Shown here: piece by piece, positions 1 to 7,171 of the stretch
How the letters are laid out: every line of letters begins with the position of its first letter
Numbering within the stretch: the stretch's first letter is position 1
DNA from: a virus
Lineage: Duplodnaviria; Heunggongvirae; Uroviricota; Caudoviricetes
Length of the DNA stretch: 7,171 bases
IMG/VR virus record: IMGVR_UViG_2609459832_000011
Direction: 5' to 3' (one strand)
Notes under the pieces: model-generated
Databases searched by the model: none
What the model was told of the DNA's origin: nothing
Seen by the model: only the letters and a program-made list of their open reading frames with translations
Program-made: the position numbers and the translations under genes

Positions 1-1587
1 ACCGTGCGTTATCTGCCGGAGTCCTTTGAGATCCCCTGGAATCCGAACACCCGTACCGAGGTGAGCACCCTCTGCATCAGCCAGTTTCGCTACAGCGCAC
101 AAATCCGCCCTTCTTCCGTGGTGACCAAAGACTACACCTTTAAACGACCCGGCTGGGCAGGGCGTTTTGATCAGGAAGGCCAGTACCAGGATTACCAGCG
201 CACACAGTATGAAGTGTATGACTACCCCGGACGTTTCAAGGGTGCCCACGGGCAGAACTTTGCCCGCTGGCAGATGGATGGCTGGCGCAACAACGCAGAA
301 GTGGCGCGCGGAACAAGCCGTTCGCCGGAGATATGGCCGGGACGGCGAATTGTGCTGACGGGGCATCCGCAGGCGAACCTGAACCGGGAATGGCAGGTGG
401 TGGCGAGCGATCTTCACGGCGAACAGCCGCAGGCGGTACCGGGACGCAGGGGTTCAGGCACCACGCTGGATAACCACTTTGCGGTAATCCCGGCAGACCG
501 GACATGGCGGCCACAGCCGTTGCTGAAACCGCTGGTGGACGGCCCGCAGAGCGCCGTCGTGACGGGACCGGCAGGCGAGGAAATCTTCTGTGATGAACAT
601 GGCCGCGTGCGGGTGAAATTTAACTGGGACCGCTATAACCCGTCAAACCAGGAAAGTTCATGCTGGATCCGTGTGGCACAGGCGTGGGCAGGCACCGGCT
701 TTGGTAACCTGGCGATACCGCGTGTGGGTCAGGAGGTCATTGTGGACTTCCTCAACGGCGATCCGGACCAGCCGATCATTATGGGGCGTACCTACCACCA
801 GGAAAACCGCCCCCCCGGCAGCCTGCCGGGGACGAAGACGCAGATGACGATCCGCTCGAAAACCTATAAGGGCAGCGGGTTTAATGAACTGAAGTTTGAC
901 GATGCGACAGGGAGAGAACAGGTCTACATCCACGCGCAGAAGAACATGAACACCGAGGTGCTGAATAACCGCACCACTGATGTGATAAACAACCATGCCG
1001 AAAAAATAGGTAACAACCAGGCGATCACCGTTACCAATAACCAGATCCAGAACATTGGCGTTAATCAGATACAGACGGTTGGTGTCAACCAGGTGGAAAC
1101 GGTGGGCAGTAACCAGATTATCAAAGTGGGATCAAACCAGGTTGAAAAGGTGGGGATCATTCGTGCGCTGACGGTGGGTGTGGCTTACCAGACGACGGTA
1201 GGCGGCATTATGAATACCTCGGTGGCGTTGTTGCAGTCCTCACAGGTAGGGCTGCATAAATCACTGATGGTGGGAATGGGCTACAGCGTCAATGTGGGGA
1301 ATAACGTCACCTTCTCGGTGGGCAAGACAATGAAGGAAAACACCGGACAAACAGCAGTTTATTCTGCCGGTGAGCATCTTGAACTCTGCTGTGGTAAGGC
1401 AAGGCTGGTGCTGACGAAGGACGGAAGCATATTTCTCAATGGTACGCACATTCATCTGGAAGGGGAGTCGGATGTGAACGGTGATTCGCCAGTGATTAAC
1501 TGGAACTGTGGTGCCACACAACCTGTACCGGATGCGCCTGTGCCGAAAGATTTACCCCCCGGAATGCCGGATATGCGGCAATTTTGA
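1..1587 (+). CDS. vgrG: Type VI secretion spike protein VgrG, C-terminal part (5' end lies outside the window)
   Basis: The frame is open from base 1 to TGA at 1585..1587. The translation has VgrG hallmarks: a gp27/gp5-like region (FKRPGWAGRFDQEG, RWQMDGWRNNAEV, GRTYHQENRPP), Val-Gly octapeptide beta-helix repeats and a DUF2345-like C-terminal region. The GTG at 4 used by the ORF track is internal, not the real start. Confidence 0.9.
   Translation, partial: TVRYLPESFEIPWNPNTRTEVSTLCISQFRYSAQIRPSSVVTKDYTFKRPGWAGRFDQEGQYQDYQRTQYEVYDYPGRFKGAHGQNFARWQMDGWRNNAEVARGTSRSPEIWPGRRIVLTGHPQANLNREWQVVASDLHGEQPQAVPGRRGSGTTLDNHFAVIPADRTWRPQPLLKPLVDGPQSAVVTGPAGEEIFCDEHGRVRVKFNWDRYNPSNQESSCWIRVAQAWAGTGFGNLAIPRVGQEVIVDFLNGDPDQPIIMGRTYHQENRPPGSLPGTKTQMTIRSKTYKGSGFNELKFDDATGREQVYIHAQKNMNTEVLNNRTTDVINNHAEKIGNNQAITVTNNQIQNIGVNQIQTVGVNQVETVGSNQIIKVGSNQVEKVGIIRALTVGVAYQTTVGGIMNTSVALLQSSQVGLHKSLMVGMGYSVNVGNNVTFSVGKTMKENTGQTAVYSAGEHLELCCGKARLVLTKDGSIFLNGTHIHLEGESDVNGDSPVINWNCGATQPVPDAPVPKDLPPGMPDMRQF
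1006..1155 (+). repeat. Tandem octapeptide Val-Gly repeats inside vgrG (IGNNQAIT/VTNNQIQN/IGVNQIQT/VGVNQVET/VGSNQIIK/VGSNQVEK)
   Basis: Six consecutive 24-nt imperfect direct repeats, each encoding xxxNQxxx with V/I-G periodicity. This matches the classical vgr repeats of VgrG proteins. Confidence 0.65.
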
Positions 1588-1647
1588 GTCAGGTGCAAAA
1601 AATTAAAACGGAACTGGTGCAGTGACCAGATAAACCATATTAAAAGC

Positions 1648-1654
1648 AGAAGGA
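1648..1654 (+). promoter_or_regulatory. Ribosome-binding site for rhs (AGAAGGA, 8-nt spacer to ATG 1663)
   Basis: Purine-rich Shine-Dalgarno-like motif at the right distance upstream of the first ATG of the 1411-codon ORF. Confidence 0.5.
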
Positions 1655-1662
1655 ATTGATTC

Positions 1663-1932
1663 ATGGGCGGAAAACCGGCGGCGCGGCAGGGTGATATGAC
1701 CCGCAAGGGACTGGATATTGTGCAGGGTTCAGCGGGGGGGCTGATAGGTGCGCCGACGGGAGTGGCCTGTTCGGTATGTCCGGGAGGGATTACCTATGCT
1801 AACCCGGTGAACCCGCTGCTGGGTGCGAAGGTGCTGCCGGGCGAGACGGACCTTGCGCTGCCCGGCCCGCTGCCGTTTATTCTTTCCCGCGCCTACAGCA
1901 GCTACCGGACCAGAACACCCGCGCCGGTGGGG
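1663..1932 (+). other. PAAR-like N-terminal domain of Rhs (boundaries approximate)
   Basis: KPAARQGD motif followed by a Gly-rich stretch with paired cysteines (VACSVCPGG). This is the conserved Rhs N-terminal region that caps VgrG in characterised systems. Confidence 0.6.
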
Positions 1933-4900
1933 GTGTTTGGTCCCGGCTGGAAAGCGCCCTTCGATATCCGCTTACAGATACGCGATGAAGGCCTGATACT
2001 CAACGACAACGGCGGCAGGAGCATTCACTTTGAGCCGCTGTTTCCCGGCGAGATAAGCTACAGCCGCAGCGAGTCACTCTGGCTGGCGCGGGGCGGGGTG
2101 GCGGAGCAGCACAGTTCGCAGCCGCTAAGCGCACTCTGGCAGGTGCTGCCGGAAGATGTTCGCCTGAGTCCGCATGTGTACCTGGCGACAAACAGCCTTC
2201 AGGGGCCGTGGTGGATACTCAGCTGGCCGGAGCGGGTGCCGGGGGCGGACGAGGTGCTGCCGCCTCCGCCGCCCGCATACCGGGTGCTGACGGGGGTGGT
2301 GGACGGCTTCGGGCGGACGCTGACTTTCCACCGGGCAGCTAAGGGTGACGTGGCGGGCGCGGTGACGGGGGTGACGGACGGCGCGGGCCGCCGTTTTCAC
2401 CTGGCGCTGACCACGCAGGCGCAGCGGGCGGAAGCCTTCCGTAAACAGCGCGCCACGTCTTTATCTTCCCCTGCCGGTCCCCGTTCTGCTTCCTCTTCTT
2501 CTGCTTTCCCCGACACGCTGCCCGCCGGTACAGAATACGGTGCCGATAACGGTATCCGGCTGGAGGCGGTGTGGCTGACACACGACCCGGCATACCCGGA
2601 TGAACAGCCGACTGCGCCGCTGGCGCGCTACACGTACACGGCCAGCGGAGAACTGCGGGCGGTGTATGACCGCAGCGGGACGCAGGTTCGCGGGTTTACT
2701 TATGATGCGGAGCACGCCGGGCGGATGGTGGCACACCATTATGCGGGGAGGCCGGAGAGCCGCTACCGGTATGATGATACCGGGCGGGTGACGGAGCAGG
2801 TCAACCCGGAGGGGCTGGACTATCGCTTTGAGTACGGGCAGGACCGTGTGACCATCACGGACAGCCTGAACCGGCGGGAGGTGCTGTACACGGAGGGCGA
2901 AGGCGGCCTGAAGCGTGTGGTGAAGAAGGAGCATGCGGACGGCAGCATCACCCGCAGCGAGTATGATGAGGCGGGGAGGCTGAAGGCGCAGACGGATGCG
3001 GCGGGACGGCGGACGGAGTACCGACTGCATATGGCGTCTGGAAAGCTGACTTCAGTGATACTGCCGGATGGCAGGACGGTACGGTATGGCTATAACAGCC
3101 AGCGGCAGGTGACGTCGGTGACGTACCCGGACGGGCTTCGCAGCAGCCGGGAGTATGATGAGAAGGGAAGGCTGGCGGCGGAGACCTCACGCAGCGGTGA
3201 GACGACGAGTTACAGCTATGATGACCCGGCGAGTGAGCTGCCGACAGGGATACAGGACGCGACGGGCAGTACAAAACAGATGGCATGGAGCCGTTACGGT
3301 CAACTGCTGGCCTTTACGGACTGCTCGGGGTACACGACGCGGTATGAGTACGACCGGTACGGTCAACAAATCGCCGTTCACCGGGAAGAAGGCATCAGCA
3401 CTTACAGCAGTTATAACCCGCGTGGGCAAATGGTCAGTCAGAAGGATGCGCAGGGGCGTGAAACCCGTTATGAGTACAGCGCCGCAGGAGACCTGACAGC
3501 AACGGTATCACCGGACGGTAAACGCAGCACCATCGCATATGATAAACGCGGGCGTCCGGTGAGTGTGACGGAAGGTGGACTGACGCGCAGCATGGGGTAT
3601 GACGCTGCCGGGCGCATCACCGTGCTGACCAACGAGAACGGCAGCCAGTCCACGTTCCGGTATGACCCGGTGGACAGGCTGACTGAACAGCGCGGTTTTG
3701 ACGGCCGGACGCAACGTTACCACTATGACCTGACCGGAAAACTCACGCAGAGTGAAGACGAGGGGCTTATCACCCTCTGGCACTACGATGCGTCGGACCG
3801 CATCACGCACCGGACGGTGAACGGCGACCCGGCAGAGCAGTGGCAGTATGATGAGCACGGGTGGTTAACCACCCTCAGCCATACCTGTGAAGGCCACCGC
3901 GTGTCGGTCCACTACGGCTATGACGATAAAGGCCGCCTGACGGGTGAACGGCAGACGGTGGAGAACCCGGAGACAGGGGAGATGCTGTGGGAGCATGAGA
4001 CGGGGCATGCGTACAGCGAACAGGGGCTGGCGACCCGTCAGGAGCCGGACGGTCTGCCGCCGGTGGAGTGGCTGACGTATGGCAGCGGTTATCTTGCGGG
4101 GATGAAGCTGGGCGGAACACCGCTGGTCGAGTACACGCGGGACCGGCTGCACCGTGAGACGGTGCGCAGCTTCGGCAGCATGGCAGGCAGTAATGCAGCA
4201 TATGAACTGACCAGCACATACACCCTCACAGGGCAGCTACAGAGCAGGCACCTGAACCTCCCGCAGCTTGACCGGGACTACGACTGGAACGACAACGGAC
4301 AGCTAATCCGCATCAGCGGCCCGCAGGAGAGCCGGGAGTACCGTTACAGTGACACGGGAAGGCTGACGGGCGTCCACACCACGGCGGCGAACCTGGATAT
4401 CGATATCCCGTATGCGACGGACCCGGCAGGAAACCGGCTGCCGGACCCGGAACTGCACCCGGACAGCACGCTCACGGCGTGGCCGGATAACCGCATCGCG
4501 GAAGATGCGCACTATGTCTACCGCCACGATGAATACGGCAGGCTGGCGGAGAAGACGGACCTCATCCCGGAAGGGGTTATCCGGATGCACGACGAGCGGA
4601 CCCACCACTACCATTACGACAGCCAGCACCGTCTGGTGTTCTACACGCGGATACAGCACGGCGAACCACAGGTGGAGAGCCGGTACCTCTATGACCCGCT
4701 GGGCCGCCGGACGGGAAAACGGGTATGGCGGCGGGAGCGTGACCTGACGGGGTGGATGTCGCTGTCGCGTAAACCGGAGGAGACCTGGTACGGGTGGGAC
4801 GGTGACAGGCTGACCACTGTACAGACCCAACAGACAAGAATCCAGACGGTATACCAGCCGGGAAGCTTCACGCCGCTCCTGAGAATCGAAACAGAGAATG

Positions 4901-5898
4901 GCGAACAGGCGAAGGCGCGGCACCGGAGCCTGGCGGAGGTGTTGCAGGAGGACACGGGGGTGACGCTTCCGGCGGAGCTGGCGGTGATGCTGGGGAGGCT
5001 GGAGCGGGAACTGCGTGCGGGAGCGGTGAGTGCGGAGAGTGAGGCATGGCTTGCGCAGTGCGGGCTGACGGTGGAGCAGATGGAAAGCCAGATGGAGGCG
5101 GAATACATCCCGGAGCGGAGGCTGCATCTTTACCACTGTGACCACCGGGGACTGCCGCAGGCGCTCATCAGCCCGGAAGGGGAAACGGCGTGGTGCGGGG
5201 AGTATGACGAGTGGGGGAACCAGCTTAATGAGGAGAACCCGCATCACCTGTACCAGCCGTACCGGCTGCCGGGGCAGCAGTATGATGAGGAGTCGGGACT
5301 GTATTACAACCGTCACCGGTACTACGATCCGTTGCAGGGGCGGTATATCACCCAGGATCCGATAGGGTTGAAGGGGGGAATAAATCTATACACGTATCCA
5401 CTGGCACCAATACGTTACACTGATCCACTGGGGTTAGAACGAGTTATAAGTGTATATGGGCCTCCCGCTCCAGACCGGGCAGGTGCTGAAACTCCTCTTG
5501 TTCTTACTGATATGACTGGAGGAGTGACTATTTATTATGATCCTGAAACAGGTGATTCAATGACTTTTGATAGTAGCAATAGAATTGATCGTCGTTCTCA
5601 ACGTGGTGCTGGTGATCCATATACAGGTGAAGTCGTTGGTTGTGAGACAAATGAATCAGGAATATCGGCAGCATATGGCACAACGAAGATCTATACTACA
5701 GATACTAGAGCAAGATGGCTACATGGTGGGGGATCATCGTTGCGCGATCCTTATGCTCCTCGACAAGGCTGGAAACCAACTATGGGATGTACCCGTGCAC
5801 AGAATGAAGATGTAGATGAGTTGTGTAAGAAAGTGACAAGTTGGATGTATTCGCATCCTGGAGAGAGAATTAGATATGAACGTTTTAAGACACGTTAA
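1663..5898 (+). CDS. rhs: Rhs family polymorphic toxin: N-terminal PAAR-like domain, RHS/YD-repeat core and variable C-terminal toxin tip
   Basis: 1411-codon ORF from ATG 1663 to TAA 5896..5898. The N-terminus [12 protein letters not shown]...[14 protein letters not shown] contains a literal PAAR motif. Many YDxxGR(L/V) repeats follow. The hyperconserved core end is [38 protein letters not shown], then a divergent AT-rich tip. Confidence 0.95.
2626..4710 (+). repeat. RHS/YD-repeat region (protein-level repeats forming the Rhs shell; boundaries approximate)
   Basis: Recurrent YxYDxxGRL-type motifs, e.g. [97 protein letters not shown]. Confidence 0.7.
5422..5436 (+). other. DPxGL motif (DPLGL) marking the end of the Rhs core and the likely autoproteolytic release site of the C-terminal toxin
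   Basis: The sequence [10 protein letters not shown] closes the conserved core. The DNA composition switches from GC-rich to AT-rich within about 50 nt of this motif. Confidence 0.8.
5437..5895 (+). other. Rhs C-terminal toxin tip (153 aa) with a YkuD-like L,D-transpeptidase catalytic signature
   Basis: His at 5722..5724 (WLHGGG), then 18 residues, then T-M-G-C-T-R with Cys at 5788..5790 and Arg at 5794..5796, then NEDVDEL at 5803..5823. Compare the YkuD consensus HG-x(14-18)-[ST]xGC[IV]R-x-N[KE]D[VI]xEL. Confidence 0.65.
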
Positions 5899-6109
5899 TG
5901 CGATTAACATGGGAGTGTGCATTCTAATTTTGGTTATTGGATGTGCAAATGCTAAAGTTCTTAAACGATGTATATTACCCGCTCCTGATGGTGGCGTAGA
6001 AAAACTATCAAAACCCAACTTACATGGAGTAATTAAAAAAGTTGATTTGAACACAAATGAAGCGGAAATTAAAATAAAAGAGGGGGGGGGCAGTGAGTTT
6101 TATTTTTAA
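5876..6109 (+). CDS. Putative Rhs immunity lipoprotein (77 aa as written; possibly truncated by a frameshift at the G9 tract)
   Basis: ATG 5876 overlaps the rhs 3' end by 23 nt. GGAGAG lies upstream at 5860..5865. The N-terminus [23 protein letters not shown]|ANAK has a basic n-region, a hydrophobic core and a lipobox (V-I-G-C, Cys codon 5942..5944). The ORF is AT-rich like the toxin tip and sits where Rhs immunity genes normally lie. Confidence 0.55.
6082..6090 (+). repeat. G9 homopolymeric tract inside the 3' end of the immunity-candidate ORF
   Basis: Nine consecutive G in otherwise strongly AT-rich DNA. A -1 G change shifts translation into a frame that stays open to TGA 6267..6269. Confidence 0.9.
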
Positions 6110-6309
6110 TGAGGAAACATTGTATTTTACTGTTTTTGGTGGGGATTTTATTATGGATGATTTAAAAAAAGTAAAAAATACGGAAGCATGGGTATGGTAT
6201 AAAAATTGCGATAGTAAAAATAAAAATGTGGCAGTTGAACTTCTTCAAATCTACGAATTGCATCAATGAAAAATATAGTTAAATAGAGGAGGTTATTAAT
6301 AGCAGGAAA

Positions 6310-6333
6310 AGCATCACGTGATGCTGATTTTTT
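6310..6333 (+). terminator. Candidate rho-independent terminator (AGCATCAC/GTGATGCT palindrome followed by a T6 run)
   Basis: Perfect inverted repeat at 6310..6325 (aGCATCACGTGATGCt) followed by GATTTTTTG, with the T-run at 6328..6333. It lies downstream of the rhs/immunity module and upstream of the H-rpt ORF. Confidence 0.45.
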
Positions 6334-6436
6334 GCACTAAATAATTCGCATTTTATGTTTAAAAATTGAGATATTCCTTATTACCTAAAGCTGTTTTTTA
6401 TTGCTTATACATGATCAAATACTCCTTACATAATTA

Positions 6437-6441
6437 AGGAG
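6437..6441 (+). promoter_or_regulatory. Ribosome-binding site for the H-rpt transposase ORF (AGGAG, 6-nt spacer to ATG 6448)
   Basis: Canonical Shine-Dalgarno core in TAAGGAGAACAAAATG. Confidence 0.6.
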
Positions 6442-6447
6442 AACAAA

Positions 6448-7171
6448 ATGGAACTTAAAAAATTGATGGAACATATTTCTGTTATCCCCGATTACAGACA
6501 AGCCTGGAAAGTGGAACATAAATTATCGGATATTCTACTGTTGACTATTTGTGCCGTTATTTCTGGTGCAGAAGGCTGGGAAGATATAGAGGATTTTGGG
6601 GAAACACATCCCGATGTTTTGAAGTGATATGGTGATTTTGAAAATGGTATTCCTGTTCACGATACTATTGCCAGAGTTGTATCCTGTATCAGTCCTGCAA
6701 AATTTCATGAGTGCTTTATTAACTGGATGCGTGACTGCCATTCTTCAGATGATAAAGACGTCATCGCAATTGATGGAAAAACGCTCCGGCACTCTTATGA
6801 CAAGAGTCGCCGCAGGGGAGCGATTCATGTCATTAGTGCGTTCTCAACAATGCACAGTCTGGTCATCGGACAGATCAGGACGGATGAGAAATCTAATGAG
6901 ATTACAGCTATCCCAGAACTTCTTAACATGCTGGATATTAAAGGAAAAATCATCACAACTGATGCGATGGGTTGCCAGAAAGATATTGCAGAGAAGATAC
7001 AAAAACAGGGCGGTGATTATTTATTCGCGGTAAAAGGAAACCAGGGGCGGCTTAATAAAGCCTTTGAGGAAAAATTTCCGCTGAAAGAATTAAATAATCC
7101 AGAGCATGACAGTTACGCAATCAGTGAAAAGAGTCACGGCAGAGAAGAAATCCGTCTTCATATTGTTTGCG
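6448..7171 (+). pseudogene. H-repeat-associated (H-rpt) ISAs1-family transposase gene interrupted by an in-frame TGA at codon 60 (6625..6627); 3' end outside the window
   Basis: The translation [116 protein letters not shown]... matches the H-rpt proteins found in E. coli Rhs elements, recalled from memory. The same frame stays open from 6628 to the window end. The track ORF 6629..7033 is in a different frame and is not the real gene. Confidence 0.8.

Follow-up and report, generated by a model that had tools for sequence, protein, structure and literature searches.

We report here that the G9 tract found at positions 6082..6090 of the 7,171-nt stretch of DNA under analysis (hereafter, the window) is probably a heritable null (+1) allele, arisen at a natural indel hot spot of a T6SS Rhs immunity gene. 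The tract interrupts a conserved reading frame that is paired with a toxin domain, and its length is polymorphic and has changed recurrently among E. coli strains.

The effector module and its putative toxin-immunity pair

ORF calls and Pfam annotation identify the window as an E. coli T6SS effector module, and the matching genomes carry vgrG and the T6SS cluster upstream. Its features are the following:

4..1587, + strand: 3′ part of vgrG, a T6SS spike gene, which precedes the Rhs gene (ORF call and annotation of matching genomes)
1663..5898, + strand: intact Rhs effector of 1411 aa (Pfam DUF6531, RHS repeats and RHS core) with a C-terminal toxin
5440..5895, + strand: C-terminal toxin domain, L,D-transpeptidase (YkuD)-like, after the DPLGLE end of the core (Pfam and paired homologue)
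5876..6269, + strand: whole putative immunity gene, a frameshifted pseudogene here; its G8 form is a 130-aa predicted exported small beta-barrel protein
5876..6109, + strand: truncated 77-aa G9 product, with signal peptide, N-terminal segment and two strands, then an out-of-frame SEFYF
6082..6090, + strand: poly-G tract, G9 here, encoding the end of Glu69 and the Gly-Gly turn; the in-frame ancestral length is G8
6093..6269, + strand: what is left of the immunity gene's C-terminal half, which can be called as an ORF of 58 aa that starts with GTG and lacks a signal peptide
6448..7171, + strand: ISAs1-family (H-repeat) transposase gene with an in-frame TGA (6625..6627), the downstream border of the module

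Two elements by which a T6SS Rhs effector is recognized are found here, namely the linkage to vgrG and a variable C-terminal toxin past the conserved core end; likewise, a small gene that co-varies with the toxin lies directly downstream, as in Rhs effector-immunity pairs, and its first 23 nt coincide with the end of the Rhs gene. The isolated Rhs C-terminus scores 24.8 bits against Pfam YkuD (cut-off 23.4) and presents the motif His…TMGCTR, and the N-terminus of the small protein has, by inspection, a signal or lipoprotein-type sequence (…LILVIGC, then ANA…). Moreover, an unrelated metagenomic contig (L036 2..945) encodes a homologue of the window's toxin domain, with 46% identity (E 4e-48), followed after 3 nt by a gene whose product shares 27% identity with the small protein. 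Such a diverged toxin and partner standing together elsewhere makes it reasonable, on sequence grounds, to regard the small gene as the putative immunity gene of the Rhs toxin. Its closest divergent homologue (P0053) is part of an array that also contains Imm57, Rap1a and MafI2-type immunity genes; a further homologue adjoins Rhs fragments. Altogether, this uncharacterised but conserved family of exported OB-like beta-barrel proteins likely provides the immunity against L,D-transpeptidase-like toxins carried by Rhs proteins. The partner family has two invariant cysteines and is covered by no solved structure or curated family; no earlier description of the tract or of the Rhs/immunity pair was found in the literature searched.

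The closest characterised analogue of the pair would be Tlde1/Tldi1 of Salmonella Typhimurium, in which an exported immunity protein accompanies a T6SS toxin of L,D-transpeptidase type acting in the periplasm, and for which the Tlde1a paper reports no complex structure (PMC9638812). Both systems would direct an L,D-transpeptidase-type toxin against periplasmic peptidoglycan, and both encode it beside an exported immunity protein. However, the toxin is here the C-terminus of a 1411-aa Rhs protein, whereas Tlde1 is a stand-alone effector, and the immunity protein belongs to an OB-like beta-barrel family without solved relative. In Salmonella, the loss of the analogous immunity gene has been reported as self-toxic (PMC13478106).

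Some other particularities of the module deserve mention. The Rhs gene has 1411 codons in the window and 1390 in its closest relative, USMARC-50748; the alignment of both splits in two around 3304/3354 (window ~3305..3353), which points to an in-frame indel of ~60 nt in the repeat region. Near the Rhs N-terminus there is a G7 run (1734..1740; protein …GSAGGLIG…) where other strains have GGGGGTG (…AGVLIG…). This run was considered as a second slippage site and rejected, as it originated by a T-to-G substitution and its length is constant in the 17 loci examined. At the downstream border, the transposase frame otherwise runs on past the TGA at 6625..6627 (…HPDVLK, the stop, then YGDFENG…); the gene is annotated as "ISAs1 family transposase, internal stop" in genomes of the same haplotype and is an intact 378-aa gene in other haplotypes, and therefore the bordering H-repeat element has been inactivated in the window's lineage.

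The tract and the conserved frame

The basic readings of the first-pass annotation hold: nine G occupy 6082..6090, and the ORF 5876..6109 (77 aa) stops at a TAA (6107..6109) located 17 nt past the tract. With one G fewer, translation does run to the TGA at 6267..6269, although the product has 130 aa and not about 131. A long open frame was also rightly held to be improbable by chance, the probability of 59 stop-free codons being ~0.004 at the local composition (31% GC); the frame 6093..6269 is open for 58 codons.

As for the tract itself, which lies within the ORF 5876..6269 and thus constitutes a repeat inside a reading frame, how unusual it is depends on the scale considered. G9 is the longest homopolymer in the window, where the other runs of at least seven are G7 at 1734, C7 at 810 and A7 at 6164. 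According to analytic first-order Markov estimates, the expected number of G/C runs of at least nine is 5e-4 to 3e-3 in the AT-rich module (5876..6447, 572 bp), but 0.2 in the whole window, which is mostly GC-rich Rhs core; therefore, the tract is remarkable locally and not window-wide. The plain count of the G7 pattern in the window showed no significant excess, and in strain 2013C-3181 there is no other G/C run of at least seven within 40 kb around the locus. The tract codons, GAG-GGG-GGG, are minority codons, since elsewhere in the gene GGG is used for one of seven Gly and GAG for one of eight Glu.

Which of the two frames corresponds to the gene was addressed by searching for homologues. 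A word-index protein search returned only near-identical E. coli/Shigella sequences, whereas an exhaustive HMMER search recovered 64 relatives, 26 of them full-length (23-46% identity to the G8 protein, about 120-145 aa), which are single proteins aligned across the tract. In this alignment of distant homologues, invariant positions exist both upstream (C32, P35, D38, G51) and downstream (G88, G89, C111, with W107 nearly invariant) of the tract, while the column of the tract itself is variable and gapped. An AlphaFold model was built on the homologue alignment with a database G8 protein (P0004) that is 98% identical to the window's G8 form. The model is confident (mean pLDDT 89) and presents an N-terminal signal-like helix (6-22) followed by a small beta-barrel with strands 49-57, 62-67, 72-76, 82-85, 102-107 and 122-125. 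Residues 68-71 (K-E-G-G), at the place of the tract, form the hairpin turn between strands 62-67 and 72-76.

The continuity of the homologues across the tract, together with the model, indicates that the 130-aa frame is the conserved gene and that G9 is a truncating allele. The suspicion that the true immunity protein is longer is thus borne out, the homologues being single proteins over the tract and 71% of the carrier genomes having G8 with one gene; the frame conserved in the homologue alignment is the longer one, which continues past 6109. A modulation of the immunity C-terminus had also been proposed; the predicted effect is far larger than a modulation, with four of the six beta-strands removed. 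The G9 product would keep two strands and lose the other four, as well as the invariant G88, G89 and C111, and from model and conservation it would almost certainly be non-functional, i.e., a null allele. In an exported protein, a disulphide between the two invariant cysteines would fit, and G9 loses one of them.

The interpretation as a programmed frameshift gene was rejected, as a single uninterrupted ORF is found in G8, the majority allele, and in every distant homologue. An assignment to Pfam DUF4367 (PF14285) was equally discarded: the full-length G11-form protein scored 20.7 bits against a gathering cut-off of 22.1 (E 6e-4), and the 77-aa G9 product gave no DUF4367 match; this name is nevertheless found on some database records. 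The family profile had no match among PDB sequences, and Foldseek of the model against PDB gave weak OB-like matches only (CusF, IF1, S-layer domain), all with E >1e-3, so none is an informative structural relative.

Genome annotations reflect the tract length. The immunity gene is a single annotated gene in G8 and G11 genomes, and mostly two genes in G7, G9 and G10 genomes; the 77-aa product appears as "hypothetical protein" in G9 genomes and, in out-of-frame genomes, the 58-aa fragment as WP_000008098.1. Whenever the allele is out of frame, the G-run falls in a Shine-Dalgarno position, a few nt 5′ of GTG 6093 (region 6078..6096), and with G7 or G10 this GTG and the upstream stop share bases as GTGA. 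From this arrangement of the sequence, re-initiation could yield a 58-aa C-terminal fragment, lacking the signal peptide.

Tract length among E. coli strains

Tract length, which the first-pass annotation suspected to be labile, varies among related strains from G6 to G11 and is not uniformly G9. Exact matches to queries of 44 nt + Gn + 44 nt were sought in 5426 complete E. coli genomes, 1015 of which have the locus, with the following distribution:

G7: 184 genomes (18.1% of 1015)
G8: 717 genomes (70.6% of 1015)
G9: 52 genomes (5.1% of 1015)
G10: 5 genomes (0.5% of 1015)
G11: 2 genomes (0.2% of 1015)

The 55 carriers without exact match are mostly G8 or G7 with a SNP in the flank, according to an evenly spaced listing, which agrees with the counts. 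Out-of-frame alleles thus represent ~24% of the carrier complete genomes, and the distribution drops monotonically on either side of G8, the in-frame G11 not being in excess. Furthermore, every length from G6 to G11 has its exact product among the contigs of a 15-billion-protein collection (at least 1000 contigs each for G7, G8 and G9; 198 for G6, 84 for G10 and 2 for G11), from which the exact G5 product is absent. G9 is common to five assemblies of strain Ec-050 and to a group of dog, cat and human isolates of near-identical size, and G7 to the listed O121 isolates; therefore, out-of-frame lengths are not to be dismissed wholesale as sequencing errors, though part of the allele counts from long-read assemblies may be errors.

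Changes in length have occurred repeatedly on the same genetic background. When the flanks of the tract (700 bp on the 5′ side, 330 bp on the 3′ side) were compared in 23 loci, three local haplotypes could be distinguished, each with several tract lengths:

Window's haplotype: G7 in ETEC4091; G8 in USMARC-50748, 120899 and LD22-1; G9 in the window, 2013C-3181 and STO_Bone1B; G11 in SCU-106
Common yafV-locus haplotype: G7, G8, G9, G10 and G11
Copy near ydcC/pptA: G7, G9 and G10

Over larger distances, P13-6 (G9) and ETEC1716 (G10) have 0 substitutions in 12,298 bp, and JP538 (G8) and ES4 (G11), of the P13-6 haplotype, are 2 and 6 substitutions away from P13-6. Similarly, 51008369SK1 (G9) and strain 44 (G8) differ by 3 substitutions, ZF34 (G9) and E2 (G8) by 2 in 9.7 kb, and E2 and 98-3133 (G10) have an Rhs deletion in common. 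These near-identical pairs (7 to 12 kb) were picked because their lengths differ and give no rate; they do indicate, however, that the tract changes its length in less time than a 12-kb stretch needs to gather a few substitutions. The existence of several lengths per haplotype, and on 12.3-kb loci separated by 0-6 substitutions, leads to the conclusion that the tract is a recurrent replication-slippage hot spot. As the complete genome nearest to the window, USMARC-50748 (99.9% over the window), has G8, the window's G9 is derived.

In turn, the length is kept in strains that were assembled repeatedly: G9 is found in five of five assemblies of Ec-050 (T0/T5/T20 included), G8 three times in ST540, and the EC0880B series is throughout one base shorter than the window, consistent with G8. 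This constitutes evidence against very fast switching.

The STEC strains SMN013SH2, RM8352 and 2013C-4974 carry a copy of the toxin-end/immunity/ISAs1 module at ydcC-pptA-yddH and not at yafV, with vgrG and Rhs heavily fragmented and with its own G7, G9 and G10 variants. A scan of species-representative genomes found the tract in a single representative other than E. coli, Shigella flexneri SFBU0723 (G8), where several other frameshifts and stops in the immunity gene and the toxin end, beside an IS element, mark a fully decayed locus. E. coli B and BL21(DE3) have kept an orphan G8 immunity gene (BL21(DE3) NZ_CP053602.1 243312..243683); the BL21(DE3) copy has its 5′ end clipped by IS1, and the entire T6SS cluster and the Rhs gene are absent.

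Competing explanations and biological meaning

The explanation that we favor as probable, a null allele at an indel hot spot, would operate as follows. The functional allele would be G8, with the Glu-Gly-Gly turn written GAG GGG GGG G in a 130-aa exported protein. During replication, the nascent and template strands would misalign within the G:C run and one G would be gained or lost; in G9, the frame shifts after Gly71 and meets the stop at 6107..6109. Such length changes have taken place many independent times in E. coli, each being followed by stable clonal inheritance. That slippage is the mechanism would accord with established knowledge of homopolymer indels. Indeed, indel rate depends on homopolymer length, and the 8-bp G.C runs of the leuP/Q/V/T tRNA genes are outlier hot spots of plus or minus 1 indels in E. 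coli mutation-accumulation work (PMC8510543). Species and run type are the same as here, but those data come from mismatch-repair-defective laboratory lines, whereas the present ones are a standing natural polymorphism in a protein-coding gene.

The alternative that the isolate is truly G8, its ninth G being a homopolymer-length miscall introduced by sequencing or assembly, is in our opinion unlikely. Long-read and some short-read chemistries are well known to be prone to errors in homopolymer length, the complete genome nearest to the window (USMARC-50748, 99.9%) has G8, and pairs like P13-6 (G9) and ETEC1716 (G10), otherwise identical in 12.3 kb, could include such errors. Nevertheless, G9 as such is genuine and widespread, occurring in 52 complete genomes, among them the five Ec-050 assemblies and several related isolates; its exact 77-aa product is present on at least 1000 contigs from several sources, and two genomes (2013C-3181 and STO_Bone1B) combine the window's own haplotype with G9. 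In this isolate, too, G9 is probably a real allele.

A different question is whether the changes in length are useful. SSR contingency loci comprise poly-G/C tracts in genes of Neisseria, Haemophilus, Campylobacter and Bordetella. The present locus resembles them in having a G tract within a reading frame, variable in length among isolates, that places the gene in or out of frame by slipped-strand mispairing. Two of the features by which such loci are recognized are found here, namely the repeat within a reading frame, and in-frame and out-of-frame lengths among isolates with independent changes. It differs in that the tract is short (8-9), the host is a mismatch-repair-proficient E. coli, the alleles look clonally stable and the target is a toxin-immunity gene and not a surface antigen. 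The slipped-strand switch suggested by the first-pass annotation stands in part, in that length varies recurrently on identical haplotypes, but these data establish a mutational hot spot, the alleles of which are stable in re-sequenced strains. We find it quite improbable that reversible ON/OFF immunity switching is useful and that the tract is maintained for it, whether by saving the cost of a periplasmic protein while the toxin plays no part or by diversifying kin recognition, both being possible benefits. The use of minority codons in a non-conserved turn where others would serve, improbable by local composition, speaks in its favor, as do the existence of all lengths from G6 to G11 on several haplotypes, the in-frame G11 alleles on two haplotypes, and the out-of-frame alleles adjoining intact vgrG and Rhs in some strains. 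On the other side stand the constancy of the Ec-050, EC0880B and ST540 series and the monotonic fall-off from G8 without G11 excess, as expected of stepwise mutation around an ancestral G8; moreover, where mismatch repair is functional, as in E. coli, the slippage of a G8/G9 run should be much slower than that of the classical phase-variable tracts. Repeat tracts typically switch at 100-10,000 times the basal rate, and the examples of E. coli phase variation taken from a 2025 review are inversion-based or epigenetic, none of them being repeat-based (PMC11868660).

The state of the neighboring toxin bears on these alternatives. For the comparison, 8 G8 loci were drawn without regard to their flanks, earlier G8 picks, biased to intact loci, being left out. 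Of the out-of-frame loci, 6 of 17 have an intact Rhs ORF, against 5 of 8 among the G8 loci (Fisher P = 0.39); for vgrG and Rhs intact together, the figures are 3 of 17 and 4 of 8, respectively (P = 0.16), in both cases with a small sample and with kinship ignored, so the association of out-of-frame alleles with a degraded toxin is a trend only. Its causation could run either way, as relaxed selection after toxin loss or as toxin loss selected after immunity loss. Intact vgrG and Rhs accompany an out-of-frame allele in 51008369SK1, STO_Bone1B, ETEC4091 and the window, and G8 is kept where the toxin is gone in BL21(DE3), E2 and strain 1223, which speaks against a simple neutral decay following toxin loss. 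With an active T6SS, an intact Rhs toxin beside a broken immunity gene should be harmful, a situation that a simple neutral decay does not explain. The tolerance of such alleles would be accounted for if RNA polymerase slippage or ribosomal frameshifting yielded enough full-length protein from G9 or G7, and both processes are known to occur at long homopolymer runs. We regard this rescue at the level of expression as very improbable, since slippage is best documented for A/T runs, and neither the majority allele nor any of the distant homologues has the out-of-frame layout, all being single ORFs, so it is not a programmed frameshift.

Since homopolymer slippage is well known, the finding of a null allele at an indel hot spot is instructive rather than surprising. 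In the literature searched, recurrent slippage in an E. coli T6SS immunity gene, with ~24% of out-of-frame alleles, appears not to have been previously described. At the level of annotation, the two small "hypothetical proteins" of roughly one quarter of the carrier genomes are the halves of one immunity gene, and tract length is to be checked before this gene is called.

There is a small chance that the locus is a genuine contingency locus, where reversible slippage switches on and off the immunity to a peptidoglycan-targeting T6SS toxin. If so, the susceptibility to self and kin would vary from one subpopulation to another, and the OFF variants would select for toxin or T6SS loss; it would furthermore constitute a repeat-based switch in a species whose phase variation is otherwise known from inversion and methylation, and the first one on a toxin-immunity gene.

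An immunity gene that carries its own mutational weak point constitutes a natural experiment. Strains with intact toxin and broken immunity should silence their T6SS, suffer killing by siblings, or rescue expression, and the many degraded toxin loci may be the record of a conflict between toxin and immunity.
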